Below are positions 27,538 through 61,822 of a stretch of DNA of 64,000 bases, one piece after another (within the stretch, counting starts at the first letter, position 1; every line of letters starts with the position of its first letter). The translations under genes were made by a program, and so were the position numbers. The stretch is from a virus: positions 133,731-197,730 of IMG/VR virus record IMGVR_UViG_3300035137_000026; one strand, 5' to 3'. Below the pieces are notes generated by a model. The model ran no database searches. It saw only the letters and a list, made by a program, of their open reading frames with translations, and was not told the origin of the DNA.

Positions 27538-28223
27538 ATTGTATCCTGTTGATAGATATATTTTACAAATGAATATACTCCTGCCTTGTTGTATATCCTA
27601 ATTTGCCATGTGTTGGTTCTCTTATCGTTATACCATCTTGGTCCAAATTTACTGAGAGAAATATATAAATGCTCAAAGAACGGATTGCGGCATCCAGTAA
27701 AAGATAAATGTAAATAATTGTGCTCCTTTACTTTGTTAACAAAGACACAACCATCTCCATCAAAAATGCCCCGGATAAAGTCCGGTGTGTATTCTCCTAG
27801 GTTTACCGTGGGCCAAGATAAGACATTGCTCTTGGTGGATATTAGACCAAACAATTCTAGCTGACTTACTATTTGGGGGTCTCTGGTCTTTATGCTATAT
27901 GTTCTAGCTCCGGCTTGTGGCTGGTAGGTATACAGCTTTTTGTTTGGGGTCAGTATTTGGTGTACTTCTTGTGCTAGCTGTAGGTCTTTGGTAGTAATGT
28001 CTAATATGGGGCTACCTTTACCATGATATAGGTTTCCGTCAGCCCAAACTAATCCTAAGATATATGCAGATATACTGTTGATATCCTCAAAAATATTATT
28101 ATCAGGATTCAGTCTACTAAACCCTGAACATGATCATGAGCAATATTTTTGTTTCGGTTTCTTTGGTTTGTAGAATAGGCGATTACAAGCCTGACATCTT
28201 TGCTCTTTGTGTGTTCCTGACAT
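27435..28223 (-). pseudogene. Free-standing double-motif LAGLIDADG homing endonuclease with one in-frame TGA
   Basis: From ATG 28223: MSGTHKEQRCQACNRLFYKPKKPKQKYCS*SCSG...AYILGLVWADGNL...DFIRGIFDGDGCV; TGA at 28134-28136; same frame as the tracked 27435..27854 ORF. Confidence 0.8.
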
Positions 28224-28235
28224 GCTCGAAGTATA

Positions 28236-29465
28236 TTATGGCTTGTAAAACTTGTCAAACTCTGCTTTTGGAAGTTCTTCGAAGTCAATAATTGGCCTTT
28301 GTGCTCGCCCCACCCCTAAAAATCTCTCAAAGTATAGCCCGTATTTGATGGGATCAACATTCGTGATACCCACACAATAGCAGACTAATGAGCCCGCACC
28401 CGACCCTCGGCCTGGGCCTACGGGAATTCCCTGTAATTTTGCCCAGTTGATAAAGTCTGCCACCACTAAGAAGTAGGTTGGGAATCCCATCTGGTCTATC
28501 ATATCAAGCTCATAGGCTAACCTTTCTTGGTATTCTGTTGTGCCATCGCCGAATAATTCTGCAAATCCTTCTTTAGCAAGCTCACTAAGAACCTCGCTTG
28601 CTGTTTTGCCGTCTGGTAGTTCGAATATCGGCCAGATGGTTTGATCATACTTCCAGGTACAATTGCATTTGTCAGCAATTTCTTGAGTAATATTGAGGGC
28701 GTGGTGCTCCTTCTCCTCAAACATTTCTTCCATCTCTTCTCTAGACTTGAAGTACAGCTGGTCCGTGTCAAACTCGAGGTCTCCTGCTGCCAGCTTACAG
28801 ATGGCATTATGTAGCTCCCAGTCAGCACTCTCCTGGTAGTGGGAGTCTTGGGTAGCTACTATGGGAACATCGAACATGCCTGAGATCTCAAACAGGGTCT
28901 CCTTAAGCTCATCCTCCCAGTCGTAGCCATGGTTCTGTACTTCAATGTAGAAGTCATCACCAAACATGTCGACCATCTCTCGAATGTGCATCTTGGCCTC
29001 GGTTATACGCCCGTCCAGAAGGAACTGGCTTAGCCTACCAGCTGGACATCCAGACAACACAACAATACCCTCCTTGTGTGCCTCAAGTACCTCACTGTCA
29101 ATTCTTGGCTTATAGTAGAAACCATCCATCCAGCCAATGGATGTCAGTCTGAATATGTTCCTAAGACCAGCCTCATTCTTGGCTAGCATGGTAAGATGGT
29201 AGGATGTCTTTCTGTGGTTGTCTAACTTATTCTTTGTAAACCTGGACTCGGGAGCTACATATGCTTCGAATCCGTATATTGGCTTGACCTCTGCCTTCTC
29301 ACACTCCTTCTTGAACTTAAGCATACCGCCACAGCGACCGTGGTCGGTGAGGGCTACGGCATTCATGCCTAGCTTGGCAGCTTTGGTGGCGATTTGCTTA
29401 CAGCTCTGGGCTCCATCTTGGGGTGAGTAATCACTGTGAGTATGTAGGTGTATGAAATTCTTCAT
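28236..29465 (-). CDS. dnaE: DnaE N-terminal PHP domain protein (separate ORF)
   Basis: HLHTHSDYS, ALTDHG, HLTMLAKN, YYKPRID, ATQDSHY, GRGSGAGSLV, FERFL; catalytic PDxDxD replaced by RPIIDFE. Confidence 0.92.
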   Translation of the reverse strand: MKNFIHLHTHSDYSPQDGAQSCKQIATKAAKLGMNAVALTDHGRCGGMLKFKKECEKAEVKPIYGFEAYVAPESRFTKNKLDNHRKTSYHLTMLAKNEAGLRNIFRLTSIGWMDGFYYKPRIDSEVLEAHKEGIVVLSGCPAGRLSQFLLDGRITEAKMHIREMVDMFGDDFYIEVQNHGYDWEDELKETLFEISGMFDVPIVATQDSHYQESADWELHNAICKLAAGDLEFDTDQLYFKSREEMEEMFEEKEHHALNITQEIADKCNCTWKYDQTIWPIFELPDGKTASEVLSELAKEGFAELFGDGTTEYQERLAYELDMIDQMGFPTYFLVVADFINWAKLQGIPVGPGRGSGAGSLVCYCVGITNVDPIKYGLYFERFLGVGRAQRPIIDFEELPKAEFDKFYKP

Positions 29466-29466
29466 C

Positions 29467-29673
29467 TTATCCTCTAGCTATGGAAACAACTTGTGCCACG
29501 TGCACAAATCCCATGCTACTGAGTATATCATAGAACTCGGTCTTTGCGAGCTGGAAGTCGTCTTCTGTTTTGTCTGTATAGACTATTAACTGAATGGAGA
29601 GATGGTAAGTGGAGTATATGAGCTTGCATACACACTAGAAGTGCTTAGTCGCTAGAGTCCTGATGAGGTTCAT
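29467..29673 (-). pseudogene. Small ORF interrupted by in-frame TAG
   Basis: MNLIRTLATKHF*CVCKLIYSTYHLSIQLIVYTDK...VSIARG; TAG at 29635-29637; fills the gap between flanking genes. Confidence 0.4.
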
Positions 29674-30289
29674 TCAGCATCGCCTCTAACACTATTTTGC
29701 TCCACCCTTCGAGGTTTATCAATTTAGATGCTTCCTGTACAGTGAACCATTGACAATCAGCAATAGTGTCTTCACGAGGCTGTGGGTATTCTGTCTCGGC
29801 TTCCGGAATGTCCACTATCAATACATACCCAAGATGAACTCTGCCCACAGGGTCTGAGTCGTCATAGATTATGCCAAACTCCTCGGTATTATTGATAGTC
29901 TGATTGTATGTGTCTCCCCACTCAAGCTCCTCAAGTAGCTCTCTGGTGACAGCTTTACTCAGAATCATGTTGATTCCAAGTGTTCGGTCATCATCCTGTG
30001 GGTTGATGTGTCCGCCAATGCCAATTGACCACTTGTTATGAAGTCGTACCTCGCCAGACTTCTTAGATCTTAGATAAGCGAGGATGGTATTTCCACGACG
30101 GATGACTACATATGGAATAATCTGCTTCTGGTCTTCATTTGTCTCAGCAGCTGCTCTTTCAGTGAAGTAGGCATGGTCTGCACAGCCATACTTCATATGA
30201 TGAATGTCCTTGTCGTTGGTGGAAAATCTTGGTAGGCCGCTAAAGCCATCCATGTATTTGGCGTCAAATACCCAAATGCTCTCTGTCAT
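29645..30289 (-). CDS. NUDIX-family phosphoesterase-like protein
   Basis: QIIPYVVI...RLHNKWSIGIGGHIN...RELLEEL...VGRVHLG. Confidence 0.8.
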   Translation of the reverse strand: MTESIWVFDAKYMDGFSGLPRFSTNDKDIHHMKYGCADHAYFTERAAAETNEDQKQIIPYVVIRRGNTILAYLRSKKSGEVRLHNKWSIGIGGHINPQDDDRTLGINMILSKAVTRELLEELEWGDTYNQTINNTEEFGIIYDDSDPVGRVHLGYVLIVDIPEAETEYPQPREDTIADCQWFTVQEASKLINLEGWSKIVLEAMLNEPHQDSSD

Positions 30290-30486
30290 TTGTTGCTCCT
30301 ATAAACCTTCTCGAATGGCTCTTGGTGAGGACACACGATCAGTACTCTGGTCTCCCTGCTGGTTGACTTAAGCTTCTGGACCTTACAGTCAGGATACTTG
30401 CTTGTTACATGCTGCATGGCGGGATTACTACAACTGCCGATGATGAATATGATAAGTCCGACGAGGATGGAAAATGCTGTCTTCAT
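30286..30486 (-). CDS. Small putative lipoprotein
   Basis: Hydrophobic signal ending IIGSC (lipobox-like). Confidence 0.45.
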   Translation of the reverse strand: MKTAFSILVGLIIFIIGSCSNPAMQHVTSKYPDCKVQKLKSTSRETRVLIVCPHQEPFEKVYRSNK

Positions 30487-30496
30487 TATACGGTTC

Positions 30497-30694
30497 CTAA
30501 GGAAAAGAGTTACTGTTGTCCTTTATACCATTGGCAGACTTGCGGTGCAACCGGTCTCTGAATCTGTACCATAGGCTAACTAGCTTGACAACCAGGGCAA
30601 TGCCGCATGCAACGGCAATTAGAAATGCCCACTTGATGACACAACATATTGCAATACAGACGCACGTTAGCAGAAATAGATGCCACAATCTCAT
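30497..30694 (-). CDS. Small membrane protein
   Basis: Start at MRLWHL (ATGA overlap with upstream stop); hydrophobic segments. Confidence 0.45.
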   Translation of the reverse strand: MRLWHLFLLTCVCIAICCVIKWAFLIAVACGIALVVKLVSLWYRFRDRLHRKSANGIKDNSNSFP

Positions 30695-31107
30695 TTTAAT
30701 ACCTCTAGTACCCCAACTACTTGGTCCAAACTGCAGCAAATATAGTCAAACATCTTAACCATCAACTCAGGCTCGCCATTCTCCAGCAAGAGAATAGTCT
30801 TCTTGCCTTGTCCAACGGCCCAACCCATCTCCATGCCAAATGGTTGTACTCCTACAAATACATCAGCCCACTGCATAGCTTCCATATCAGATAAGAAGCC
30901 CTGCTCTGCTAATGGATGATGAAGGTAGTCCCTGTATTCTTGGGGAGTCCAGTCCTGCCAGTCTGGATCTATGTCGTACCAGTGAAAGCCATCCTGGCCT
31001 TCGGCTGGGTGCCTAAAGTCATAGACCTCGTGACCAGCCGCAGTAAGCCTTCGAACCACCTCTGGTTGGAACTTATTCCTCCAGCTACTAGCTACATATA
31101 TCTTCAT
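30691..31107 (-). CDS. Nucleoside 2-deoxyribosyltransferase-like protein
   Basis: KIYVASSWRN...GHEVYDF...DMEAMQWAD...MEMGWAVG. Confidence 0.7.
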   Translation of the reverse strand: MKIYVASSWRNKFQPEVVRRLTAAGHEVYDFRHPAEGQDGFHWYDIDPDWQDWTPQEYRDYLHHPLAEQGFLSDMEAMQWADVFVGVQPFGMEMGWAVGQGKKTILLLENGEPELMVKMFDYICCSLDQVVGVLEVLK

Positions 31108-31108
31108 A

Positions 31109-31375
31109 CTAATACTCCGTAGACCCTAGCAGCCCTCTACCAAACACCTCTGTCCACTCCTTGGCTGTTTTCTCCGTAGGTGTTTTGCCATTGGTCTCTG
31201 GGTCTGTTTCGTCAAAGAGCTTTAATGTCTGCTCGTCGGCCAGCTCCTGCCACTCTATTTCATCCTCATAGTCCTCTCTCTTCTCTCCTATCTGCTCGTA
31301 CCAAACGGTCAAGGCGTCTTCCTTGTCGTTGGCGATTACCCATTCCTGTTCGTTGAAAAATACGTGTAAGCTCAT
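31109..31375 (-). CDS. Hypothetical acidic protein
   Basis: 88-aa ORF in packed operon. Confidence 0.5.
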   Translation of the reverse strand: MSLHVFFNEQEWVIANDKEDALTVWYEQIGEKREDYEDEIEWQELADEQTLKLFDETDPETNGKTPTEKTAKEWTEVFGRGLLGSTEY

Positions 31376-32735: not shown

Positions 32736-32968
32736 ACTACCTTGGCTCCGTTTACTCCTATAGCCAGACTACCAGAGTCCTGAATGGCTTTGATGTATGG
32801 ACGATTTAGCTCGGGGTGCTCAAACAAAATTGCTTCCCAAACATCATCCACATAATAAACCGGCTGTTCCTTATCGAATCTATCTTCTTCTAGGAACAAG
32901 ACCACCGTCTCGTTTGGGTCTAGCTCCTGAAGTCGCTCTATTAGTTCGTGTACTTTTATTGCTCTCAC
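32714..32968 (-). CDS. Hypothetical protein
   Basis: [19 protein letters not shown] small phage protein. Confidence 0.5.
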   Translation of the reverse strand: MRAIKVHELIERLQELDPNETVVLFLEEDRFDKEQPVYYVDDVWEAILFEHPELNRPYIKAIQDSGSLAIGVNGAKVVCALYPH

Positions 32969-34138: not shown

Positions 34139-34164
34139 GTTTTACCTCTAACTGTGTGAAATGT

Positions 34165-35626: not shown

Positions 35627-35663
35627 GTTGCCACCTCATACATAACCATATTACTATTTGACT

Positions 35664-40052: not shown

Positions 40053-40211
40053 CTAGAACCTCACGTCTACAAATGCGGACCAATCATCGACTACTACCTC
40101 AAGATTGCTGTCGTTGAGAAGCTCGGTTCACTCGATACAGCGCTTTACATTGTCTTCTAGCTGTATCTGCATGTCCTTGGGGATTATGGTGAGCGTCGTC
40201 GTACGAAACAT
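40053..40211 (-). pseudogene. Small ORF with one in-frame TGA
   Basis: MFRTTTLTIIPKDMQIQLEDNVKRCIE*TELLNDSNLEVVVDDWSAFVDVRF; TGA at 40128-40130; final TAG abuts the next ATG. Confidence 0.5.
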
Positions 40212-42201: not shown

Positions 42202-42531
42202 CTACTGGTTTTTGATGTGCCAAGTGATGGTTTCCATAGGAGTTCCATCTCTGTATCCAGTATTATATATTTTAGTATCACTGTAGTTATGGACTACTGA
42301 CTCTATTGTCTCGAGTGTCTCGGTATCAGTGTCATCATAGCTACGATAACTGAAGGATACAGTGAAGAAGAAGTCGTTGTCTGCTTCGGCTTGGACGACA
42401 TATAGCTTGTCTAGATCCAGAGCTAGCCACTGTTCTACTAGTGAGGATGGGCGGGCACCATTAATGCTGGTGGTTGGTAGGCGGGGACACCACGAGCAAT
42501 ACGCTGATGGTATATGGTCTACACCGAACAA
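42202..42531 (-). CDS. Hypothetical protein (true start probably downstream of tracked start)
   Basis: C-terminal ~75 aa look protein-like. Confidence 0.4.
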   Translation of the reverse strand: MFGVDHIPSAYCSWCPRLPTTSINGARPSSLVEQWLALDLDKLYVVQAEADNDFFFTVSFSYRSYDDTDTETLETIESVVHNYSDTKIYNTGYRDGTPMETITWHIKNQ

Positions 42532-42635
42532 CCTAGGCGGAATGCTAGTTCTCAGTCTGGCAATGCTCCAAGCGGCTGGCCTTCCCAGAACCTTTTGCGC
42601 TGTGCGTGTGATAGGCCTTTGTTGAATTGTGACAT
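42438..42635 (-). pseudogene. HTH-repeat protein with two nonsense codons
   Basis: MSQFNKGLSHAQRKRFWEGQPLGALPD*ELAFRLGCSV*TIYHQRIARGVPAY; LG..PD.ELA.RLG.S motif; TGA at 42552-42554, TAG at 42519-42521. Confidence 0.65.
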
Positions 42636-43642: not shown

Positions 43643-44254
43643 TTATTTGTCTAGAAGCTCATCGAGCTTCGCCTCGAGGCGCTCAACTTTGGCGTGGAGA
43701 TCATCGTCTCTTGCCCAGCCATCCCACATTATGAGCAGTGGGAGAGCAGTCTGGAGCAGAGTAGCGATAGCTAGTGACTCATCGTGAGAGACTGTTACTG
43801 TTGCAGTCTTAGTCGTGTCGCCCTTCTTCTGATATACTGACCAGAAGAAGTTATCTCTGTCTGCAGGCTTGTCGATTGTTAGGTTGATTGTCTCTTGGCC
43901 TCTGTTTGCTGTGCCGGCACCCTTGTCGTGATAGATCTTGAGCTTGCCGTTATTCTTCTCAAACATCTTGTGGCCTGGAGCCCTGATGTACATGAGGATC
44001 TTGGGGATGTCTACCATACCCAGAGCCATGATCACCTTACTGTTCTCCCAGTCGTACTGGTTCTTGCCTACAGCTGGGGCCATCTCTAAGAAGAGGCAGC
44101 CATCGTCCTTCTCACGACGGTCATCTGTGTAAGCTTTCTTCAGGTTTAGGCGCAATGCGCCAAACTTGCCTGTCACACCCTTGAAGAGTGCGAACTGGAG
44201 GGGGGCCTTAAGTCTTCTCTGTCTGTCCTGGAATGTTTCGTTCTGTTCTGTCAT
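43643..44254 (-). CDS. Whirly-like single-stranded nucleic-acid binding protein
   Basis: FALFKG...LEMAPAVGKNQYDWENSK...YHD...RGQ...FFWSV...ALPLLIMWD parallels recalled plant Whirly motifs. Confidence 0.65.
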   Translation of the reverse strand: MTEQNETFQDRQRRLKAPLQFALFKGVTGKFGALRLNLKKAYTDDRREKDDGCLFLEMAPAVGKNQYDWENSKVIMALGMVDIPKILMYIRAPGHKMFEKNNGKLKIYHDKGAGTANRGQETINLTIDKPADRDNFFWSVYQKKGDTTKTATVTVSHDESLAIATLLQTALPLLIMWDGWARDDDLHAKVERLEAKLDELLDK

Positions 44255-46304: not shown

Positions 46305-46541
46305 CTATTCTGGGATCCGTCTTAGTAGCTCTGGATAGAATTTGATGTATGGTGAGCCCTTAATAATTTCCTTGGAGGCTTGCTTAAAGAGTTCGTCCAG
46401 CAGGTCGTCTTTTACCTGCTTAAAGATGTCATCACTATAATAGATCTTCTTCAAGATCGCCAGACATCTTTTGGTCTCACCAGTTACGTGCTCGTTTAAG
46501 AACTTCTTCTCAGCTAATGTTAGTTTCTTCTGTTTTGTCAT
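46305..46541 (-). CDS. Hypothetical protein
   Basis: Probable start MTKQKKL. Confidence 0.45.
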   Translation of the reverse strand: MTKQKKLTLAEKKFLNEHVTGETKRCLAILKKIYYSDDIFKQVKDDLLDELFKQASKEIIKGSPYIKFYPELLRRIPE

Positions 46542-46938
46542 TGTCCTTGCTAAAGTTGTGTGGGACCGCCTTCCCATCCTTGTCTACGGTTATGAATACT
46601 AGCTCTGCGGAGACTACGTCTCTCTAGATGTTAGTAGATATCTTCCTAGTCTTTGCCCGGACTCTAACTGTGAAGGACAAAGTGCCACAATTGCCTATAC
46701 TACAGAAGAACTCTACAATGTCGCCTTGATGGGCAGGACTCTTGAAGATTAGCTGTGATACCTTAAGGGTTACAAGCTGATTGGTCTCTAGCTGGCAGGT
46801 TGCATAGATGGCAGCAGCCTTATCAAGCCACTCCATCATACGCCCATCAAATAGTCTATTTGATGGGTTTAGGTCGCCAGGCATGACGATCTTTCTAAAT
46901 GACATTGTCTTATCCATGGCCTGGTATCCATTCTGCAT
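46510..46938 (-). pseudogene. Hotdog-fold acyl-CoA thioesterase interrupted by in-frame TAG
   Basis: KIVMPGDLNPSNRLFDGRMMEWLD...; after TAG (46624-46626) the frame continues RDVVSAELVFITVDKDGKAVPH, the canonical C-terminal strand. Confidence 0.8.
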
Positions 46939-53015: not shown

Positions 53016-53497
53016 TTATCTCCAAAACTGCCACCACTTCTTGGGTGCTACTTCTTCCGGCTTCTCTATGGGTGATCACTTATTACACCAACCATCTTCG
53101 TTATGTTTTCTACATTCTTCGTAAGTTATGACGTTACCAATTATGAAGTTCCAGTGTGTTTATGTGTGTGCCCTGCATAGTTGTTCTTTATAGTACTGTC
53201 TTAAAGCCAAGTCCATGGTTAACATGGTTTGGTACAAGTCTGAGTCTATGTGATATATAGTATGCATGCCATGATATAGCATGCTGTGTGGATGTATCTC
53301 TCCTGGTATGAAGTGTATGCAGCTGCCGTAATGGTGTTTGTCTGACTTTATGGTTTTTTCCTGGAAGGCATCACAGTAATCAATGGTGGTAGTGGCTATA
53401 TAATACCTTCAACCCTGTGTCTACATCTCTTACAGACGGCGGGTCCACATATCTCACGGTCATCCTCGTCAGTGGCATACATTCTGTGACCGAACAT
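53016..53497 (-). pseudogene. Cys-rich phage protein with a frameshift and two nonsense codons
   Basis: MFGHR...CKRCRHRVEGII, frameshift in a TATATA run near 53400, then ATTTIDYCDAF...LCRAHT*THWNF...GWCNK*SPIE...KKWWQFWR; TAA at 53160-53162, TGA at 53076-53078. Confidence 0.6.
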
Positions 53498-53510
53498 TGT
53501 GCAGGGTATC

Positions 53511-54398
53511 TTATTCATCTTCTTCCACATTATGGTCTCCCCACATTAGGAATAGCAAGCAGCATCCTGCATGAGCTAGGTGAGACTTGCCACTCTCCGG
53601 GTCCTTCTTCTCCCCGTCATACCATGCCGTCATATGCCTCATCAGGGCACCGAAGTATCGCTTCCTTAGGGGTCTCACGTGCTTCCAGTTGTCGTCTCCG
53701 GTAAATTCAGCTGTTGCTGTTGTCTCGCTTGATAAATTTAGCTGCTGTAGGCGACTGAAGATACCTAATCGCTTCTTTAAGGTCAGTGATATTGTCACCA
53801 AACATTCCAAGACCGTTGTTGCAGCGACTACATAAGTAGCCTCTTGCAAGTCCTGTTTTAGTGTCATGATCAAGATGCATGGTGCATTCAGAAAACTTAC
53901 GTTTACATATTGCGCATCTATTTTCTTGTTCTTGTAGTAGAAGTTTAACTGTTTCTTCGGTGAGCCCTCGGCTTCGAAGGATGCTTCTTCTTTTTGTTCT
54001 TCTATCCTTTGCTCTCGCCTTTGGGTCTGTGCGTCTACGTTCCCTATACTGAGCAAGCTTATGGGGATTGTCTCGTTCCCATTTTCGCCGGTTTTCTCGC
54101 TGTCTTTCGGCATATTCAGGATTCTGTTCTTTAAGCTGTTTATCGTAGCAGGCTCTGCACATCCCTCGTGAATGTACCACTCTATATTTATCGCATTTAG
54201 TGCAGTATTCCATTCTTTCAATTCCTCCTCCAGGGAGGATAGCATAGAACTGGAATCTAACTCAAGTTTTTGTGAATACTTTTTCGCACCGAAGGTAAAA
54301 ATCTCGACTATCTCTCCTACTTCTTTGTATGGTAGGAGTTCCCATCTGGGTTTGTCCTGATCGAATTTTCTCCCTAGTGGTTTCTGGTCTTTGCTCAT
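53511..54398 (-). CDS. dATP/dGTP diphosphohydrolase-like protein (DUF5664-type) with a 192-codon in-frame insertion
   Basis: KFDQDKPRWELLP...FGAKKY|insert|GDDNWK...RYFGALMRH...DPESGKSHLAHAGCCLLFL; about 103 aa without the insert. Confidence 0.85.
   Translation of the reverse strand: MSKDQKPLGRKFDQDKPRWELLPYKEVGEIVEIFTFGAKKYSQKLELDSSSMLSSLEEELKEWNTALNAINIEWYIHEGCAEPATINSLKNRILNMPKDSEKTGENGNETIPISLLSIGNVDAQTQRREQRIEEQKEEASFEAEGSPKKQLNFYYKNKKIDAQYVNVSFLNAPCILIMTLKQDLQEATYVVAATTVLECLVTISLTLKKRLGIFSRLQQLNLSSETTATAEFTGDDNWKHVRPLRKRYFGALMRHMTAWYDGEKKDPESGKSHLAHAGCCLLFLMWGDHNVEEDE
53707..54213 (-). CDS. Endonuclease VII-like (His-Cys box) homing endonuclease nested in an alternative frame
   Basis: QENRCAICK...HLDHD...ARGYLCSRCNNGLGMFGDN...LKEAIRYL; own GGAGGAGG RBS. 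Confidence 0.9.
   Translation of the reverse strand: MEYCTKCDKYRVVHSRGMCRACYDKQLKEQNPEYAERQRENRRKWERDNPHKLAQYRERRRTDPKARAKDRRTKRRSILRSRGLTEETVKLLLQEQENRCAICKRKFSECTMHLDHDTKTGLARGYLCSRCNNGLGMFGDNITDLKEAIRYLQSPTAAKFIKRDNSNS
54207..54256 (-). promoter_or_regulatory. Predicted RNA hairpin covering the RBS and AUG of the nested endonuclease
   Basis: mRNA AUUCCA(G)UUCU pairs with AGAAUGGAAU (contains the AUG); inner UCCUC/GAGGA stem holds the SD. Confidence 0.55.
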
Positions 54399-54416
54399 AA
54401 TTATCCTTAGACATTA

Positions 54417-54656
54417 TCAGTCTGTGTATAGCATTGGTTTAAGTTCTGATTTTATCCGCATAGCAACCTCGCCTCTCCAGGTACTAGCATTAGATAAAAA
54501 ATATCTGACGACACTAGATGCTGAGTCGTAGAAGTAGTTATTATTAATGCTATTTAATGTCTTTAGGGCATCAAGGTACGGCTTGGCACCAAAGTAAACT
54601 TTCTTCCAATCCTTTTCTATCTCTTTTGCTATTTCATACAATGGTCTATGTGACAT
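54417..54656 (-). CDS. Small conserved-type phage protein
   Basis: RPLYEIAKEI..DW..VYFGAKPYLDA...FLSNASTWRG. Confidence 0.6.
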   Translation of the reverse strand: MSHRPLYEIAKEIEKDWKKVYFGAKPYLDALKTLNSINNNYFYDSASSVVRYFLSNASTWRGEVAMRIKSELKPMLYTD

Positions 54657-55855
54657 TAGTCTAACTCCACTAGATATTTAACAGTACACTGTTCTTCATT
54701 ATAAACAATGAACTCGTTGTTTCTTAAGTCTGCACCACCAAGAGCAGTAAGTGAATCATAGTTACCATGCTTCTTGAGGTTTTTATCTGTGAGGTTATAC
54801 ATCCAGTGTTCATGTTTCTTTTTGGTTAGGGTATTCCCCAAGTGAACATCATATAGAGCCATGAACCCCTTGTTGGATGAGCCTCTGGCCCAATAGGAAC
54901 CTCTACATGAGGTGTAGCCATAGCTCTTTCTTGCTTTATCGGCGAAGTATAATCCATAGCCAAACATCTTACCTGTTATGACAGCATTAGTAGGTCTAAG
55001 TATTAGTCCACCGTCTAAGATGTTCCACCAGTTTTCGTTTCTACTGCCGTGCCAGAACAATCTACGCTTCTTAACTTTTGCTTTCTTTACAAACTTATCG
55101 AAGCGTTCCTGTGTCCTTTTGTTAACAACCTTAAAGGCTCTTCTGAATTTGTGGGAAATCTCCCCAAGTTCTTTCTTGATAGTTCTAATATCATCTTCAT
55201 TGGCTGGTACGATTTCAAGTCCCATTGCCTCAAGGATAGTTTTCTTGTCCTCGGCTTTAGTAGTCTTCTTGACAGTGGCAACACGAACTTGGCCCTTAAG
55301 AATATCAAGAGTAGCCTGTTCGCTTACAATGAGGCTCTCTGCGTCATTCTTATCTCCATACCAGAGGTGACTTCGTACGTCTTTCATCCTCCTTGGGATT
55401 ACTTGGTATAGATCTAGTAATAGGTCATTGAAGTTTGATGCCGTGAGCTTCTTCTCGGTTAGAGTAGATAGCTTAGCTAGTTTATCTAGAAGCTTCTGTG
55501 CTTCCTCTACTTGCTTTTGAGTAACAGCATCAGAACTTATGGTGTAGTTAGCTTGAACAGATTTGTGGGCTAGTGCTTGTAACTCAGTTACAATTTGGTT
55601 AATGGCATTGTCACTAATAGTCTGAAAGTCTATGACATTTTTGTCTACCACACGTAGCTCGGTTACGTCTTTGTATCCCTTCGTGATTTTTGACTTAAGT
55701 AGGGAGTCCCATTTGCTTAATGGGTAGCGGGCATGTTGCTCAGTAGCATCCACACGGCCGTAGGTGACAGCAATCTCATTACCTTCTTGGACCATATTAT
55801 AGTACTTATTATTATTCCGGGCTGTCACCATTATTAGGTTTGCTATTTTTCCCAT
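54656..55855 (-). CDS. PARP-like ADP-ribosyltransferase (WGR + helical + catalytic)
   Basis: NNNKYYNM..YGRV (WGR-like), FWHGSR, GKMFGYGLYFAD, KSYGY, NNEFIVY: H-Y-E triad. Confidence 0.9.
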   Translation of the reverse strand: MGKIANLIMVTARNNNKYYNMVQEGNEIAVTYGRVDATEQHARYPLSKWDSLLKSKITKGYKDVTELRVVDKNVIDFQTISDNAINQIVTELQALAHKSVQANYTISSDAVTQKQVEEAQKLLDKLAKLSTLTEKKLTASNFNDLLLDLYQVIPRRMKDVRSHLWYGDKNDAESLIVSEQATLDILKGQVRVATVKKTTKAEDKKTILEAMGLEIVPANEDDIRTIKKELGEISHKFRRAFKVVNKRTQERFDKFVKKAKVKKRRLFWHGSRNENWWNILDGGLILRPTNAVITGKMFGYGLYFADKARKSYGYTSCRGSYWARGSSNKGFMALYDVHLGNTLTKKKHEHWMYNLTDKNLKKHGNYDSLTALGGADLRNNEFIVYNEEQCTVKYLVELD

Positions 55856-56164
55856 TCTTCTTCCTTCTAATCTATCTAATTAGAAAAGGTATACCAATTG
55901 GAATTCCGGCTGGTACTAGGATATACCATAAGATCCCGACGACAAAGACAGTAACCATCATCAGTATTGCCATCCCCAGAATGTACTGGTCTCGTCCGGT
56001 CCGAATCTTCCTTTCTTTGGTAATATATAATTATGTAGGACTCTTTGCTTTGGTATCTTATCGCTAGTTCAGAAGTACAGTTGGTATATGGCTTAAGGTA
56101 CCATAGTTAGCCCCACCCAAATGAGAGGGAGCAGCCAAGATAATATAAGGGAGGCTTTAATCAC
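55800..56164 (-). pseudogene. Decayed membrane-protein gene
   Basis: VIKASLILSWLLPLIWVGLTMVP*AIYQLYF*TSDK...; frameshift to LGMAILMMVTVFVVGILWYILVPAGIPIGIPFLIR*IRRK. Confidence 0.45.
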
Positions 56165-56507
56165 TTTGCTTCTCCTTTAGCTTTTTGCCATATAAATATC
56201 TTGCGAGTTTTACGCCTGTAACTATAAGGAGAGTAGGTATAGAAACTATCCAGGTAAAAAGTATGATTGCACCTATAAAGATAGATCCAAGTGCTATTGC
56301 CAAGTAATATTCGTCTTGATTACACCCATGATTACGTCCATGTGTTTTCTCTAGATCTTTTGTGAGAATAGACCAGAATATTCTTCTTGGTTTCTCTTGG
56401 TGTCTTATATAATGTGAGAGCCAGAAGATTAGCTCGCCAAGGAGGTATACAATAGAGGCAAGAGCAACTAGGCCAGCAAAGACGTATCCTACGATGAAGT
56501 ACCACAT
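56157..56507 (-). CDS. Membrane protein
   Basis: Two to three hydrophobic segments. Confidence 0.55.
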   Translation of the reverse strand: MWYFIVGYVFAGLVALASIVYLLGELIFWLSHYIRHQEKPRRIFWSILTKDLEKTHGRNHGCNQDEYYLAIALGSIFIGAIILFTWIVSIPTLLIVTGVKLARYLYGKKLKEKQSD

Positions 56508-56516
56508 GATATCTCA

Positions 56517-56843
56517 TTACATAAACTGTACAACAATCCACCCAAAGAAGACGGCGAAGAGTGGTTTAAGAGATAGGGTTATTAAGTTTGAAATTACTAA
56601 CTCTTTTTTCTCATCGTCTTTCTTTTTTGACTGGGTTGTTGCTGTGAAGTATCCAACAATAAGACTGAGGCCGATAGCTTGTAGAGTGCTAATTTTCTGT
56701 ATATTAAATATAGGTACAACAAACCATTCCCACAATATAGATAAAGCCCAACCGTTTAAAATAGCTGATATAATTATTGTGAGAGGAATTAGGAGTATAA
56801 TTCCAAGTAAAGCGAGTCCAGTATGGCTTGATTTAACTTGCAT
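56517..56843 (-). CDS. Membrane protein
   Basis: Three hydrophobic segments; LWEWFVVPIF...LQAIGL. Confidence 0.6.
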   Translation of the reverse strand: MQVKSSHTGLALLGIILLIPLTIIISAILNGWALSILWEWFVVPIFNIQKISTLQAIGLSLIVGYFTATTQSKKKDDEKKELVISNLITLSLKPLFAVFFGWIVVQFM

Positions 56844-56855
56844 CTAATTTACCTC

Positions 56856-57119
56856 TTATCTTTCTCCTAGTTCAACAAGTAAACTATGATCTATCATTCC
56901 GCTATGTACTTCAGCATGACAGTTGGCACATAGAAGAACACACTTTTCTATCTCGTTACGTATATCGTACCAGGTAGACTTCTCGCTGATGTTGAAGTCT
57001 TTCTCATGTGGATTGAGATGGTGGAAGTGTAGCGCTCGTAGGCATTTATTGTACCCGCAAAGGAGACAACCGCCGCCGAGGTGGGAGACGGCCGATTGTT
57101 TTAGGAACTCTTTCCTCAA
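56856..57119 (-). CDS. Short HNH endonuclease
   Basis: GGCLLCGYNKC..ALHFHH...CVLLCANCHAEVH; paralog of 62629..62979; possibly N-truncated. Confidence 0.8.
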   Translation of the reverse strand: MRKEFLKQSAVSHLGGGCLLCGYNKCLRALHFHHLNPHEKDFNISEKSTWYDIRNEIEKCVLLCANCHAEVHSGMIDHSLLVELGER

Positions 57120-57123
57120 ATAG

Positions 57124-58098
57124 CTACGCTGCTATGCGGGATACTTCTCTCATAGTCCTCTGAATCATCTTGTTGCCGCCGCCGAAGAGAGATGCTTCAA
57201 ATCTTTTAGCCTGGTGGTCTCCGCCTCGAGCTTTACGCTGATAGTTGGAGTACTCTACTACTGCGTTGTAGGCAGCCCATCCAGTACCAGCAACACCTGG
57301 AATGTCCTGTCCTGTGCCGTCATAATATAGCTGGCTGATATTGTCCCTGACGTTCTGCCGCATGGTCTCAGCCTTCTTGGTTATAAGGTGAGGTGGTGGC
57401 ATTGGAACGACCTTCTCAAGGACTTTATTCCACTGATTGGCTGTAAGTTGAGTTCTAACAGCTCCCTTAGCCCAGGCATCAAAGTCTTGAAAGCCCTTGT
57501 GGGCGATGCCTAGCACTCCCTTGGCCTGCTGGATCTTTTCCCTGAGGTTCTTAGTGTGGCGGACCTTTACGCCTTCTCCTGCCGCCTGGCGGAGAGCTAC
57601 CTGGGCGGTGTTAGCACACACGACCCTGATTGTGGTAAACACAACTCTTAGGGATGAGCTGCCGTCATGGCTATTATACAGGAACAGGTAGTGGTCTATT
57701 TTGTCCTGTGGAAGGATTTCTGTTTCGGATATCTTGCCCAGCAACCAGATCTTTTGGCCTCCATAAAGCGAACCAGCCGTGTGGTACCTCATGTCACCAT
57801 CTTCTACCAGGCTGTCCATGAAGTCAAATGCCTCTAGGTTCTGGATTGGCTGATACCTGTTGCCCACAATACCTAGGATCTGCTGATCAGCAGTTCTGAC
57901 TACGGCCTTATGAGTCGGAATAATTTGGCTGTGTATCTTGTCCTGGGATGCATAGATTTCCTGTTTCTCTACTTCCCAGTCTAGGCCAGCCTTGATGATT
58001 GCATCCTTGGATAGGAGTGGCTCGTCGCCAACATAGATGCCTAGGCCATGCCAAGGTGGCTTCTGGTTATACATCATTGTCTCTACTGCGTCTGTCAT
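57124..58098 (-). CDS. DUF932 / phage-plasmid LGT-associated protein
   Basis: PWHGLG...GLDWEV...VGNRYQPIQN.EAF...AGSLYGG...NSHDGS...IRVVCANT...GTGWAAYNAV.EY. Confidence 0.85.
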   Translation of the reverse strand: MTDAVETMMYNQKPPWHGLGIYVGDEPLLSKDAIIKAGLDWEVEKQEIYASQDKIHSQIIPTHKAVVRTADQQILGIVGNRYQPIQNLEAFDFMDSLVEDGDMRYHTAGSLYGGQKIWLLGKISETEILPQDKIDHYLFLYNSHDGSSSLRVVFTTIRVVCANTAQVALRQAAGEGVKVRHTKNLREKIQQAKGVLGIAHKGFQDFDAWAKGAVRTQLTANQWNKVLEKVVPMPPPHLITKKAETMRQNVRDNISQLYYDGTGQDIPGVAGTGWAAYNAVVEYSNYQRKARGGDHQAKRFEASLFGGGNKMIQRTMREVSRIAA

Positions 58099-58135
58099 TT
58101 TCTATTCCTTGTCTTTGATGGGAATCCATGTTGAT

Positions 58136-58219
58136 TGGAGGGTAGAGGATTTAAACCTTTGTAGGTTTTACCCTGCCACTACTTTCCAAGCGGGCCGATT
58201 ACCACTCTCGCGACCCTCC
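58136..58219 (-). tRNA. Degenerate (pseudo) tRNA-Ser(GGA)
   Basis: Perfect 7-bp acceptor GGAGGGT/ACCCTCC, long variable arm, loop TTGGAAA; two mismatches in the anticodon stem, T-loop TTTAAAT, one T-stem mismatch. Confidence 0.6.
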
Positions 58220-58277
58220 TAGTCAGAGAGGAACCACCAGTATAGGATAATGATTACTATCACTGTCCCAATTTCCA

Positions 58278-58856
58278 TTATTTGTCCTTCACTGCCGAGA
58301 AGTAGCACTCCCAACACACAGGCATATACTTCTCTTCTGCTCCAAGCTCGATAGAGGGGCCTTGTGTTGTGGGCTTGCCGTTGATTATCTTAAGGTTCTG
58401 TGTTGCTTTCCGAGTACAGCTAAGACATACTGTCTTGATTTCTTCAATCTTGTCTGCTACCTCAAAGAGCCTCTTAGCGGCTGGAAACAGCTCTGACTTA
58501 AAGTCAGCCTTGAGTCCAAAGCAGATGATTGGAATATCATACTCGGTTGATACACTCCTTAAATAATTCACCCACTTTATAGACAGGAACTGTGCCTCGT
58601 CTACTAGAATACAAGCGGTATTGTCAGGAATATCAAAGATATGTGGATCATCCTGCATCAGGATGTCAGCATTGCGCTCGATGCCAATCCTAGTCTTGAT
58701 TACACCGTAGCCAAATCGTGTATCCATCTCTGGCTTTAGGATAAGTACCTTTTTGTGCTGTAGCTCATAGTTGTGCGCTATGACCAATAGCTGTAGGGTC
58801 TTGCCTGATCCCATTGTCCCATATTTGAAATGCAATTTAGCCATCTGATTTGCCAT
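58278..58856 (-). CDS. tdk: Thymidine kinase
   Basis: YGTMGSGKT, DTRFG, ILVDEAQFL, FGLKADF, EEIKTVC..C, EEKYMPVCWEC. Confidence 0.95.
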   Translation of the reverse strand: MANQMAKLHFKYGTMGSGKTLQLLVIAHNYELQHKKVLILKPEMDTRFGYGVIKTRIGIERNADILMQDDPHIFDIPDNTACILVDEAQFLSIKWVNYLRSVSTEYDIPIICFGLKADFKSELFPAAKRLFEVADKIEEIKTVCLSCTRKATQNLKIINGKPTTQGPSIELGAEEKYMPVCWECYFSAVKDK

Positions 58857-59256
58857 CCTTGATTATAGCTGACATTGCTGCCTCAAGCTTAGTAGTTAGT
58901 CTGATGGCCATCTTTCTCTTAAATTCAGGACTGACTATTTTAAGCGATAGCTGTATGGCTTTCTGGCCTGTCTTGCTTTCATAGAATGCAATGAGGTTGT
59001 CTAGATCAGTGTCTGTATAGATTTCTTCACATTCTTCCAGTAACAGTCCGTTAATGGTCTTCTTTACTATGGGTGATATTATAGCCCTAGTGAAGACCGG
59101 CAGCTCATTGAGTTCTGTGCTGAACTGTGCTACTTCGTTGATGACTGTGTTGAGGCATTTCATCACCTTCTGCAGTTTTGCTTCTCTATCCATAATTTCT
59201 CCTCTGGTGTTATCCAGGCTACTGCTTTCGAGGCAGATGCAATACCATTCTGCCAA
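58837..59256 (-). CDS. Helical hypothetical protein (DUF2059-like)
   Basis: YTDTDLDNLIAFYESKTGQKA. Confidence 0.5.
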   Translation of the reverse strand: MAEWYCICLESSSLDNTRGEIMDREAKLQKVMKCLNTVINEVAQFSTELNELPVFTRAIISPIVKKTINGLLLEECEEIYTDTDLDNLIAFYESKTGQKAIQLSLKIVSPEFKRKMAIRLTTKLEAAMSAIIKDGKSDG

Positions 59257-59318
59257 CCCTCCATGGGCCTGGAGGCCCTTAAGATATGTTGTAAGCTCCT
59301 GTTCGGATGTCGCCGTAC

Positions 59319-59528
59319 CTATTGGGTGGCCGCAGCCAATACACTAGAAGCAACTGATCTCGCCGTTGTGTACCTCAACGGCACCGGCACCCCGAAATCA
59401 TAGTCTACTTCTCCGGCTGGATTAATGTTGGTTATGCGGTCGACAACCGTACAGTCTTGCAGTACGGATTCGACAAGGCCTTTAGCCCCGTACTTAGCAT
59501 AGATAAATTTGTCTAGTAGATTAGACAT
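59319..59528 (-). CDS. Hypothetical protein
   Basis: 69-aa ORF. Confidence 0.35.
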   Translation of the reverse strand: MSNLLDKFIYAKYGAKGLVESVLQDCTVVDRITNINPAGEVDYDFGVPVPLRYTTARSVASSVLAAATQ

Positions 59529-59841
59529 GCAGCAGGCAGGCGTAGCGATTGTCGTTCTGGATGTAGGACTTGGGCACTACTGTGGTACGGTGGACTGCAG
59601 ACACGGTTGTCTTTACGATTTTGGTGTGTGGCCACGGCAGGACTCGGCGCTCGTGTGCACGTGGAGCCTTTGCCATGGCTACCTTCAGGACTGTCTCTGA
59701 CTTCTCGCCCTCAAGCCGACGCTCCACTACATCTAGGACCTTAGCGGTTCGGCAGTAGATGTCACTCTTCTTACGAAGCGGGTAGGTGATGTAATCACCT
59801 GGCTGGATGATGTTACGGAACATGTCATACGCTGTCTTCAT
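59521..59841 (-). CDS. Hypothetical protein
   Basis: AYDMFRNIIQPGDYITYP-type phage protein. Confidence 0.55.
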   Translation of the reverse strand: MKTAYDMFRNIIQPGDYITYPLRKKSDIYCRTAKVLDVVERRLEGEKSETVLKVAMAKAPRAHERRVLPWPHTKIVKTTVSAVHRTTVVPKSYIQNDNRYACLLHV

Positions 59842-60142
59842 CTTCTTTCTCCTCTGCTTTTAGAAGCTTGGCTACTCTCTCAGTAGCCTTAGTTAGCCGG
59901 CCCATAGACCAGCCTAATTCTCTGGCAATGGGTGCCATGTATTTGTAATCATATCTGCTTTCTAGGTTAAGCTTCTCTTCTGTGATGAGTAATACAACTT
60001 CTGTATTATCATCTTCCTTCTTCATATCTCGCTTGGCTTGGACGCCCATCTCCATAATACTGCGGATGGATGTGCTCCCCTTTGGCTTTTTGGGCTTGCG
60101 AATGCTAGATTTGATTCTTCGTCTGCTCATACTGTTCCTCAT
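59825..60142 (-). CDS. Basic hypothetical protein with possible HTH
   Basis: IARELGWSMGRL. Confidence 0.5.
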   Translation of the reverse strand: MRNSMSRRRIKSSIRKPKKPKGSTSIRSIMEMGVQAKRDMKKEDDNTEVVLLITEEKLNLESRYDYKYMAPIARELGWSMGRLTKATERVAKLLKAEEKEDEDSV

Positions 60143-60165
60143 AAGTTGGTCTGTAGTGCTAACTC

Positions 60166-60200
60166 ACAATAGCACAACTACACATGAGGTCAAGTGCTAT
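60166..60200 (-). promoter_or_regulatory. Sigma70-like promoter bracketed by an inverted repeat
   Basis: TTGACC-16 nt-TATTGT with ATAGCAC...GTGCTAT arms flanking/overlapping it. Confidence 0.4.
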
Positions 60201-60272
60201 TTTCCTCCGACTTTTCTTCTCTCGGCAGCTTGCTGAAGGGCCTTATATGCTTCGGCCCAGTTAAGCAAGTTC

Positions 60273-60503
60273 TCAGCGTGGCCCTTCTCTGCGGCCTTCC
60301 TTCTTCTCCTGTGGTGGTTTAGGTGGTCTTGGATGGAGTGGTCCATCCCACCACCAGCCATCTGGCCAATATTTTTTATTAGGCCACAGCTCTATTACTA
60401 GTGGCTCTGTATCACTTAGATCATCGCCCCACCACCACTGCCAATCTGACGGTGGACGTGTTGGTGGCGGTCTTGGTTCTCTTGTCCACTTAGGCTGGCT
60501 CAT
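60273..60503 (-). CDS. Pro/Trp-rich hypothetical protein
   Basis: 76-aa ORF; a +1 frame continues with protein-like sequence to about 60195 (possible frameshift). Confidence 0.4.
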   Translation of the reverse strand: MSQPKWTREPRPPPTRPPSDWQWWWGDDLSDTEPLVIELWPNKKYWPDGWWWDGPLHPRPPKPPQEKKEGRREGPR

Positions 60504-60840
60504 AGACTATCTCTACTTCAGTTCTAGTGTAGCGGTCGATCCATTCTGAGCCACAGACAGTGCAGTAGCACTTCTGTTCAGCCTGTTGGACGTTGTAGGG
60601 ATTATCATGTGGCTCATTCGCTTCGACTGACCTTCCCTCGATTTTGCTGCTGCCACATTTTGGGCAGGTGAATGGCTTCTGTTTTGTCAAGGGTCTGGTA
60701 TGATTCTCTTTATAGAAGCTCTCCCAGTCTAGCTTGTTGGCTTCTTTTTGTATATCATCCCATATATACTGCAATAGGTCCCACCTTGAGCTGATGTCCA
60801 TCTGCTCTAAGAGGTCCCGAACATCAACATCCATTGTCAT
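60490..60840 (-). CDS. Zn-ribbon hypothetical protein
   Basis: CPKCGS...CTVCG; start at ATG 60840 overlapping the upstream TGA. Confidence 0.55.
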   Translation of the reverse strand: MTMDVDVRDLLEQMDISSRWDLLQYIWDDIQKEANKLDWESFYKENHTRPLTKQKPFTCPKCGSSKIEGRSVEANEPHDNPYNVQQAEQKCYCTVCGSEWIDRYTRTEVEIVYEPA

Positions 60841-61622
60841 TTGTACTGTGGCTTGCATCCAAACTTCTCCTCAAGGGCAATAACTAGCTTCTGCATGTCA
60901 GCCTTGTAAAATCCAGCACAATTAACACAGCCGCACTACATAATCTTCCATCTGTCGTTGGACAGGCAGATATCTAGCACAAATGCATCTGCTAGCTGGT
61001 AAATGTCTAGCATTTCCTCACAGAATTCGATAGCCTGTGGGTCTATCTCAGCCTTAAATAGTGGTCTTATGCCCTACTTATACTGGCTGGCTGTGACTAT
61101 CCGGCCATCTACAATCCAGAAGCGGAACTCTTTTTGTACTCTCTTGATTGGGGCTACCTGAATGAGTGTATCTGATGCGGGCTGGGAATGGTAGCTGCTG
61201 TCCATAGCATCCTGCTTGAAGGTTTGCCAGTCTATGATATTGAAGACCTGTCCGCTAAATAATTTAGTATCCTTAGTAGGGCGGATGAAATATGCTAGGT
61301 CAGGCCATGGGAAGTCCTCTCCAAACTGGTAGACTCTCGAGTCATAGTTAAGGAGGTTTCCTTGATAGTAGTTGCGGTAGACCACGAAGTTATGGTTTGG
61401 AGTCATGAGGGCTCCAGGAGACCAGTCGTATTTCTGGGCGAGCCGGGCCATTTTGAACCCGCCAAAACAGAAGACATCCTTGCGCTTAGTAGCAAACTCA
61501 AGCTCTTCTATGAATGGCCTCACCTTAACGATTTCGTATGGTAGTCCTAGACGGTCTAGTGCCTGTAATAGGTGAGTATAGCCGTCTTCCCTGAAGGTGT
61601 TCTCTTGGACAAGGTAAAACAT
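60837..61622 (-). pseudogene. ATP-grasp (R2K/DUF4343-like) gene with two in-frame TAG codons
   Basis: FIRP...EFRFWIVDGRIVTASQYK*GIRPLF...AFVLDICL...WKIM*CGCVNCAGFY...; TAG at 61074-61076 and 60936-60938; read-through stop forms ATGA with the next gene. Confidence 0.85.
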
Positions 61623-61822
61623 TAGGTAGACCTGTGTCTATTGACTCTTCTTACTAGCTGGGCTTCCATTGCAACCAGGCTTGACATCCCGTGTGCTTGT
61701 CCGACAGCATTACGTCCCTAGGAGGAACTTCTACCTCCCAGATCTCGGATTTTCTTCTGAGATATACGCTTACGCTCATGATCTTCTCGGCTTTATTGAT
61801 TTCTAGTTAAATGCAAACACAT
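61623..61822 (-). pseudogene. Frameshifted small gene remnant
   Basis: MCLHLT / EINKAEKIMSVSVYLRRKSEIWEVEVPPRDVML / VAMEAQLVRRV lie in three different frames. Confidence 0.35.

Follow-up and report, generated by a model that had tools for sequence, protein, structure and literature searches.

In the 198-kb genome of an uncultured phage, a small set of accessory genes carries in-frame stop codons that are probably the marks of ordinary decay. The genes would be true pseudogenes, specific to this lineage and of dispensable function, at two stages of degeneration in a phage where searches for integrase, resolvase, ParA and ParB found none. As judged by alignment with relatives that keep the genes intact, single-base substitutions have made the nonsense codons and, in one gene, destroyed the start codon. 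The window analysed here (the whole stretch of 64,000 nucleotides) belongs to a 197,730-bp record that is a complete genome, with 127-bp direct terminal repeats, 223 confident ORFs, 21 tRNAs and full modules for replication and structure. The verified protein pseudogenes, about five among these ORFs, amount to a broken load of roughly 2%; a literature search found little on pseudogene load in large uncultured phages.

Genes with probably recent lesions

An earlier, sequence-only reading had claimed lesions in many accessory genes of the window. Homology and Rfam bear this out for four protein genes and a tRNA-Ser gene, and five further claims that lack a homologue are unconfirmed. The verified features are as follows.

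27435..28226, minus strand: LAGLIDADG homing endonuclease gene (HEG), in-frame TGA at 28134-28136 (codon 31)
46510..46938, minus strand: hotdog-fold acyl-CoA thioesterase gene, in-frame TAG at 46624-46626
53019..53351, minus strand: Cys/His-rich pseudogene of 110 codons (homologue 109 aa), four separate lesions
58136..58219, minus strand: degenerate tRNA-Ser(GGA), from Rfam, ARAGORN and comparison with relatives
60837..61622, minus strand: R2K-clade ATP-grasp gene, in-frame TAG at 61074-61076 and TAG at 60936-60938

For the HEG TGA, the thioesterase TAG and the two ATP-grasp TAGs, homologues align collinearly across each stop. The Pfam R2K_3 match of the ATP-grasp gene (4.4e-19) takes in residues 100-248 and spans both of its stops; there are 431 homologues, and those listed cover nearly the whole read-through length. 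The first TAG falls in a variable column, occupied by Leu, Arg or Met in homologues, and the second replaces a Glu that is invariant in 115 of 115 homologues and that, to judge from other ATP-grasp enzymes, is presumably a metal ligand. All 57 other columns with conservation of at least 95% are retained, and the tails that follow the two TAGs have hexamer scores of 0.58-0.59. The encoded protein, ending 78 residues early and deprived of the invariant Glu, would be null. By a rough estimate, the second stop would come before a change in any conserved column in about one case in five; on that estimate, two stops beside 57 kept columns are not alarming for a pseudogene.

The thioesterase is a member of Pfam 4HBT (1.5e-10), and phrog_18230 (1e-25) covers its residues 13-130 with the stop included. 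At the stop position, Trp or Ser is found in eight intact homologues, which are 120-132 aa long. The TAG removes about 25 conserved C-terminal residues, and the invariant Gly and His of the homologues, which fall 3' of it, are lost here; truncated in this way the product is presumably null. Its post-TAG tail scores 0.59 by hexamer, as in intact coding sequence, and apart from the stop neither alignment nor hexamer score gives signs of relaxed constraint.

The HEG lies between two pieces of dnaE, a gene that is heavily invaded. Its TGA interrupts a zinc-ribbon-like motif (YCS*SC); the read-through translation matches Pfam LAGLIDADG_3 at 3.5e-11, an endonuclease family (phrog_4645, 6e-32) is recognized 3' of the stop, and three PHROG families (phrog_3794, phrog_1271 and phrog_2308) align across it. 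The LAGLIDADG domain is downstream of the TGA, with both LAGLIDADG motifs intact. No ATG, GTG or TTG occurs between the TGA and 27854, and the start at 27854 is already past the first LAGLIDADG motif, so that the product would be null with no usable start following the stop. The gene may have only just begun to degenerate, or unusual initiation may still allow its expression.

Beyond the window, a conserved small gene at genome positions 17244-17555 has an amber codon across which homologues align. Together with the ATP-grasp and thioesterase genes, and probably the HEG, it would constitute a recent class of decay, otherwise like intact coding sequence.

Older remnants and a degenerate tRNA

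The Cys/His-rich gene near 53 kb is, on its alignments, an older pseudogene. Its start codon is changed from ATG to ATA (53349-53351), Cys8, the first Cys of a CxxC, has become Tyr, a TAA (53160-53162) stands in place of Lys, and a TGA (53076-53078) stands in place of Trp. An ungapped alignment with the 109-aa homologue (P0133) extends over 108 residues at 47% identity (E 2e-33), and a syntenic homologue is present in the related phage L005. A frameshift that had been proposed within 53016..53497 is not needed given this collinear alignment; the TAA and TGA proposed at the same time are both present, and the homologue aligns across them. Identity to homologues is 43-47% for this gene versus 55-74% for its syntenic neighbors, and a hexamer score of 0.08 signals eroded composition. 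Relaxed constraint is thus seen here in divergence and composition and is absent from the ATP-grasp and thioesterase genes, the relatives being too distant for dN/dS.

The tRNA-Ser(GGA) was also claimed to be damaged, and it is: it scores 29.8 bits against the Rfam tRNA model, compared with 55-70 for the three other tRNAs of the window, has three non-standard pairs, and has TTT in the T-loop where all four aligned related phages have TTC. ARAGORN calls it only with a lowered threshold, while L007 and other relatives have a tRNA-Ser(GGA) that is called at the default threshold; L005 has no tRNA at the corresponding spot. The predicted molecule departs from the standard cloverleaf pairs and the conserved T-loop of a functional tRNA-Ser.

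The five claims with no homologue concern the following features.

29467..29673, minus strand: small ORF, claimed in-frame TAG, hexamer 0.16
40053..40211, minus strand: small ORF, claimed in-frame TGA, hexamer 0.22
42441..42635, minus strand: HTH-like remnant with in-frame TGA and TAG, recognized by motif only, hexamer 0.06
55856..56156, minus strand: gap below a 116-aa membrane ORF, claimed lesion not confirmed
61654..61806, minus strand: claimed 61.7-kb remnant, a 41-codon ORF with ATG, hexamer 0.18

None of the five (29.5, 40.1, HTH, 56 and 61.7 kb) has a match in Pfam, PHROG, phage records or paralogues; they are no more than plausible as real lesions, and the true lesion count is therefore uncertain. 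The score of the 29467..29673 ORF, which matches no Pfam or PHROG family and has no paralogue, exceeds 99.6% of off-frame windows yet ranks among the bottom 5% of in-frame windows. The 40053..40211 ORF likewise matches no Pfam or PHROG family. An ORF of 45 codons overlaps it in a different frame. The translation of 42441..42635 has a helix-turn-helix pattern of the ELAFRLGCSV*TIYHQRIARG type and finds no match in Pfam, PHROG or phage records. A homologue search with the 116-aa membrane ORF and every frame of the gap at 55856..56156 found none; the gap contains a hydrophobic 33-codon ORF with its own ATG, and the syntenic L005 is without the entire block 55880-56858. The 61654..61806 ORF has no family match, and its region contains no RNA family. 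By hexamer score there are two groups, the post-TAG tails at 0.58-0.59 and the remnants at 0.06-0.22; the scores of the unmatched remnants are intermediate and resemble that of the verified old pseudogene at 53 kb. With it the small remnants would probably form an old class of decay, marked by several lesions and eroded composition.

Possible causes of gene loss

That core genes are intact, as had been noted, is confirmed: the long ORFs are all open under code 11, those for structural and replication proteins included. Essential replication, nucleotide and structural genes are presumably free of lesions only because such mutants die, and the pattern of an open core and broken accessory genes is expected in any genome, since essential genes are never observed with a stop. 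The broken genes, for their part, would be unneeded for replication in the current host, so that mutations in them escape selection and the DNA awaits deletion.

The sequence-only reading went further and proposed a phage in lifestyle transition, for which the genome offers no support. A recent, genome-wide relaxation of selection, with many accessory genes decaying together in a persistent episome, a narrow host or a bottleneck, is in our judgment unlikely. The presence of several conserved genes (at least three to four) with stops so recent that nothing else has changed in them does weigh against a plain pseudogene account, and would fit a shared recent cause; older remnants exist as well. 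Against such relaxation, a search of the complete genome with the Pfam models for tyrosine integrase, serine recombinase, ParB and ParA-type ATPase (PF00589, PF00239, PF02195 and PF13614) found no integrase, resolvase, ParB or ParA, and the positive controls were detected. The direct terminal repeats and the full replication and structural modules also speak against it, two ages of decay favor continuous turnover over a single event, and a load of about 2% broken genes is not demonstrably exceptional for a large phage.

It is improbable, too, that the losses were adaptive, with knock-outs selected because, for example, the proteins trigger abortive infection or another host defense, and the null alleles then swept. 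Laboratory escape from such defenses is often by nonsense mutations in non-essential phage genes, which the very recent stops in well-kept, widely conserved genes would match. Escape does not, however, require two stops in one gene, the sequence gives no pointer to any particular defense system, and the same process is evident in the older remnants, where positive selection need not be invoked.

Read-through and recoding of stop codons

Systematic read-through, named by the sequence-only reading as what would overturn it, finds no support when assessed from the sequence. None of the 21 tRNAs called at the default threshold has a CUA, UCA or UUA anticodon; with a lowered threshold CUA is still absent, and the calls that then appear for UCA and UUA resemble false positives. 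TAG terminates 75 of the 223 genes (34%), and backup stops do not follow. The in-frame stops include TAG, TGA and TAA, all in a handful of accessory genes, and the residues aligned at in-frame TAGs differ (Glu; Leu, Arg or Met; Trp or Ser). Recoding of TAG or TGA was considered and rejected on these four grounds: three stop types, no suppressor tRNA, the many genes that end in TAG and inconsistent aligned residues.

A conditional form of read-through, in which the phage reshapes termination and the stops in the ATP-grasp, thioesterase, 17244-17555 and HEG genes act as stage-dependent translational switches, is very improbable. The phage does encode an RF1-type release factor, which may make termination non-standard in the infected cell, a point that counts against the pseudogene reading; the gene for its RF-1 domain is itself split, being read in two frames across an in-frame UAG. 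TGA terminators are avoided in late genes (2 of 54, as against 30 of 149 in the two arms; Fisher P=0.004), distant relatives have CUA-anticodon tRNAs, and the genes of the recent class are otherwise intact. An additional RF1 would nonetheless mean stronger, not weaker, termination at UAG, no one inserted residue suits the three kinds of aligned site, and neither the missing suppressor tRNA nor the TAG terminators and mixed in-frame stops would be accounted for. The share of TAG also matches mutational expectation: 43% of the possible nonsense substitutions in the coding sequence of the genome yield TAG, and its four occurrences among five recent stops are not significantly different from this (P about 0.12). 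Were conditional read-through true, the view of phage gene regulation would change, with stops linked to the release factor that the phage encodes and to TGA avoidance in late genes.

Placement of the lesions

The lesions had been ascribed to real mutations filtered by purifying selection instead of random error, and both the placement of the stops and an independent assembly favor this. When six stops are placed at random, the chance that every one lands in a gene no longer than 263 aa is P=0.025, and the chance that they also occupy at most four genes is P=0.0009. Truncated ATP-grasp and thioesterase proteins identical to those described here are encoded on a second assembly, an independent Logan contig of 185,779 bp, and intact full-length copies of the broken genes are present in related phages, the syntenic L005 among them. 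Errors of sequencing or assembly, or minority alleles in the consensus, are accordingly a very improbable source of the stops; the record is a metagenome assembly known here from its consensus alone, and the recent lesions are all single-base changes, but random errors would strike the long genes, indels are absent from the verified lesions (all of them substitutions), the same proteins recur in an assembly of different length, and the four lesions and raised divergence of the 53-kb gene are beyond any error process.

Comparison with known systems

If the plain pseudogene reading holds, the affected genes should be annotated as pseudogenes, and at least one lineage in nature can do without the widely conserved R2K ATP-grasp gene and the thioesterase.

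In recoded phages a single stop is reassigned, and suppressor tRNAs are encoded by many of them; recoding has been proposed to regulate their late and lysis genes, and their close relatives with the standard code are depleted of TAG and TGA as terminators (Borges et al., bioRxiv 10.1101/2021.08.26.457843). The present phage resembles them in its in-frame stops and in encoding a release factor, and differs in having three stop types in few accessory genes, no suppressor tRNA and frequent TAG terminators. On the plain reading, in-frame stops in uncultured phages need tests of this kind before they are called recoding.

In laboratory amber mutants of T4 and lambda, the gene products are truncated when there is no suppressor. 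These mutants too have single TAG codons in phage genes that are otherwise intact; the stops described here differ in being natural and in non-essential genes, with no sign of a suppressing host. For homing endonucleases, a model of Goddard and Burt reportedly describes a cycle of invasion, fixation, degeneration and loss. An early-stop LAGLIDADG HEG in dnaE is what this cycle would lead one to expect once all target sites are occupied, although the phage HEG has a single lesion and keeps both LAGLIDADG motifs.

There is also a likeness to nonsense pseudogenes of prokaryotes, which include genes acquired by horizontal transfer that failed or became superfluous (Liu et al. 2004, PMC522871) and have been described from plasmids as well (PMC11229322). 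The setting here is a large uncultured phage, in which a link to lifestyle is not demonstrable, unlike the case of plasmid mobility (PMC11229322). The pseudogenes of both settings (PMC522871, PMC11229322) are disabled copies of genes that are intact in relatives, concern dispensable functions only, and show in-frame stops, start loss and mixed ages. The two stages of decay would then illustrate, on a small scale and in nature, how accessory genes of a large phage are lost, first through point mutations and then by deletion.

Disrupted accessory genes

The sequence-only reading had described nonsense codons and frameshifts in accessory genes beside an intact core, an observation that proves largely right, with lesions verified in four protein genes and one tRNA gene of the window. 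The best explanation is probably that dispensable genes have turned into pseudogenes in this lineage in the ordinary way and are seen at two stages of decay. The disrupted genes, together with a further one elsewhere in the genome (the whole virus record), are as follows.

27435-28226 (-): LAGLIDADG homing endonuclease gene, TGA at 28134-28136, codon 31
46510-46938 (-): thioesterase gene, TAG at 46624-46626
53019-53351 (-): the 53-kb gene, in an apparent gap, gaplessly collinear with a 109-aa protein
58136-58219 (-): tRNA-Ser(GGA) gene, 29.8 bits, three non-standard pairs
60837-61622 (-): R2K ATP-grasp gene, TAG at 61074-61076 and TAG at 60936-60938
Genome 17244-17555 (-), outside the window: small conserved gene, in-frame TAG at genome 17463-17465, spanned by phrog_16275 and cultured-phage homologues

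Both TAGs claimed for the ATP-grasp gene are confirmed, with the Pfam R2K_3 alignment (4.4e-19) covering the two of them. Of 431 homologues found, those listed match nearly the full read-through length, and the sole truncated form among the matches listed (182 aa) is this genome's own. An alignment of 115 homologues places the first TAG in a Leu/Arg/Met column and the second in a column that is Glu in 115/115. The gene keeps every one of the 57 further columns with conservation of 95% or more. The thioesterase TAG is likewise confirmed by phrog_18230 (1e-25), which extends across it, and by eight intact homologues of 120-132 aa that carry Trp or Ser at the TAG position and an invariant Gly and His downstream of it. 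A separate assembly, the 185,779-bp Logan contig, also has calls of identical truncated ATP-grasp and thioesterase proteins.

The endonuclease TGA sits within a zinc-ribbon-like motif across which three PHROG families align; the nuclease domain is downstream, and the first of the usual start codons comes only at 27854, so that this lesion, too, is borne out. The endonuclease is in keeping with the way in which fixed homing elements usually decay. The neighboring dnaE is itself split in pieces (window 24685-29465). An ORF with the PHP and N-terminal part (28236-29465) ends just past FERFL, and the broken LAGLIDADG gene comes next; the junction segment recurs, in diverged form, at the start of the dnaE core ORF (24685-27537), which has a full intein inside and ends in the N half of a cyanobacterial-type split intein.

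The 53-kb gene gave no match in a word-index protein search of the remnant, and an exhaustive HMMER search then returned one true homologue, the 109-aa protein (47% identity, E 2e-33). The claimed TAA (53160-53162, for Lys) and TGA (53076-53078, for Trp) are both present; the frameshift claimed with them is unneeded. The start codon is ATA (53349-53351), and a CxxC pair has Tyr in place of its first Cys. Identity to homologues is 43-47%, versus 55-74% for syntenic neighbors to theirs. Next to it, only the last 61 residues of a 295-aa dATP/dGTP diphosphohydrolase-like ORF (window 53511-54398) match the orthologue in L005, a syntenic related phage locus, as would fit an insert of large size and in frame on the side of this genome.

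For tRNA-Ser(GGA), the T-loop reads TTT versus TTC in the four aligned relatives, and copies in relatives such as the related phage locus L007 are found by ARAGORN at the default threshold; with the score and pairing listed, this upholds the lesion proposed for it.

Candidate lesions

Other proposed lesions stand as candidates, each with no match to a family, phage record or paralogue.

29467-29673: small ORF
40053-40211: small ORF
42441-42635: HTH-like stretch with TGA and TAG
Below the 56-kb membrane ORF: gap
61654-61806: 61.7-kb remnant

The HTH remnant had no Pfam match in three-frame translation with X at the stops, an approach too insensitive for such a remnant. A hydrophobic ORF of 33 codons that has an ATG of its own lies in the 56-kb gap, and the block 55880-56858 is wholly absent from L005; the lesion claimed there is thus putative. 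Relative to L005:6709-7954 the window has two extra blocks, 55880-56858, made up of two small membrane-type ORFs and a 301-nt gap, and 58099-58277, the degenerate tRNA-Ser, at places where L005 spaces the corresponding flanking genes by only 1-14 nt. Lesions and remnants are therefore located in insertion/deletion hot spots. Overlapping ORFs in different frames at window 60197-60506 (60273-60503, whose product is Pro/Trp-rich and of low complexity, and 60197-60361) both have moderate coding scores and no homologues found; either a single gene with a frameshift or a pair of small genes could account for them. The only RNA families found in the window are tRNAs, with no group I intron among the matches.

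In the left arm, candidates at genome 4719, 8800, 14394, 28705, 32256, 36437 and 43401 had no PHROG match. The TGA at 14394, in genome 14184-14462(-), is flanked on both sides by strongly coding-like sequence, with no start in the next 70 codons. At genome 9031-9411(-) there is a candidate TAA at 9271, and the segment preceding it matches only the first 44 of 104 positions of phrog_21321, weakly.

Genome setting

The IMG/VR record is complete (197,730 bp, with direct terminal repeats, DTRs, of 127 bp), and the window makes up its final 64 kb (133731-197730). With one spurious antisense frame as the exception, the long ORFs of both arms (about 1-52 kb and 133-198 kb) are on the minus strand and those of the structural block that separates the arms are on the plus strand. 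Alongside the intein-containing dnaE pieces, the region encodes a class II ribonucleotide reductase with an intein, RecA, UDG, thymidine kinase, a PARP-like protein and numerous small ORFs. The PARP catalytic domain (1.7e-26) belongs to a 399-aa protein at window 54656-55855 that is conserved in many large phages (24 of the loci fetched); a Whirly-domain protein (1.4e-12) is at 43643-44254. Near and distant DNA searches showed similarity to cultured phages at the recA level only, and hence no close relative among them. The ribonucleotide reductase protein used as a query for related loci gave no match, protein P0002 was not located in viral or genome contigs, and protein identity to the closest relatives is only 55-72%.

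Error, age of decay and lifestyle

A motif shared by the surroundings of the stops would have pointed to systematic miscalling of a modified base; none was seen. Random error was addressed by placing six stops among the 63 genes of the region with probability proportional to gene length: all six fell in genes of at most 263 aa in 2.5% of trials, and in at most four such genes in 0.09%, indicating that the lesions are not random error. There are no indels among them.

The age of the lesions can be gauged with a hexamer coding score trained on this genome's long ORFs (0.43 +/- 0.14 in frame, -0.21 +/- 0.09 off frame). Downstream of their TAGs, the ATP-grasp and thioesterase genes score 0.58-0.59, as intact genes do. 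The score is 0.08 for the verified 53-kb pseudogene and 0.06-0.22 for the candidate lesions, values that exceed 97-99.6% of off-frame windows but rank among the lowest 4-10% of those in frame. Dispensable genes would thus be caught at two points, shortly after inactivation and after long erosion. As about 4.3% of possible substitutions create a stop, a second ATP-grasp stop before any change in a conserved column would be expected roughly 1 time in 5, which is not alarming.

A lifestyle transition had been suggested from the same pattern; an episomal or temperate one is without support: no tyrosine integrase, serine recombinase, ParB or ParA-type ATPase was found in the whole genome, and control genomes matched. 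An intact core with broken accessory genes is what purifying selection gives everywhere.

Termination and read-through

Systematic read-through or recoding of the stops is disfavored. No suppressor tRNA is among the 21 tRNAs called by ARAGORN, and lowering the threshold still gives none whose anticodon is CUA, while the UCA and UUA calls made there resemble false positives. The in-frame lesion stops include all three types, and the residues aligned with in-frame TAGs vary, the invariant Glu among them. TAG accounts for four of the five recent stops, yet TAG-specific enrichment was rejected (P about 0.12), since TAG has the largest share (43%) of the nonsense substitutions possible in the coding sequence of this genome. 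Terminators comprise 114 TAA, 75 TAG (34% of genes) and 34 TGA. The median next in-frame stop is 15 codons past TAG, versus 9 past TAA and 7 past TGA, so nearer backup stops after TAG were not found.

Four distantly related large phages, whose ATP-grasp proteins are 48-50% identical, have CUA-anticodon (amber-suppressor type) tRNAs inside tRNA arrays by ARAGORN (L035:7166-7234, L048:19685-19759, L055:20108-20180, L065:140-213), and L068, another related locus, has one tRNA with a UUA anticodon. By a crude open-frame measure, TAG recoding was not seen in the 11-21-kb stretches of these relatives.

The phage also carries its own release-factor gene at genome 77-about 690(-) (locus L109; Pfam RF-1, 9.5e-28; PxT-type motif), with its 3' end repeated in the DTR at window 63890-64000; the gene is absent at the same spot in L005. 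This RF1-type gene is in two frames, a 37-codon ORF ending at TAG (UAG) and the remainder in the +1 frame after a AGGAGGGGG CTT TAG C site resembling the prfB frameshift site. TGA terminates 2 of 54 confident late plus-strand genes (about genome 53-133 kb) versus 30 of 149 in the minus-strand arms (Fisher P=0.004). Together with the RF1-type factor, TGA/TAG usage suggests a late translation that relies on RF1 and steers clear of stops needing RF2. The RF1-type gene, late TGA avoidance and CUA tRNAs of distant relatives leave a small probability of read-through, and the phage's termination-related oddities are the sole path to anything beyond ordinary pseudogenes. This phage lacks the signatures published for recoded phages, and the case is another example of already known gene decay.
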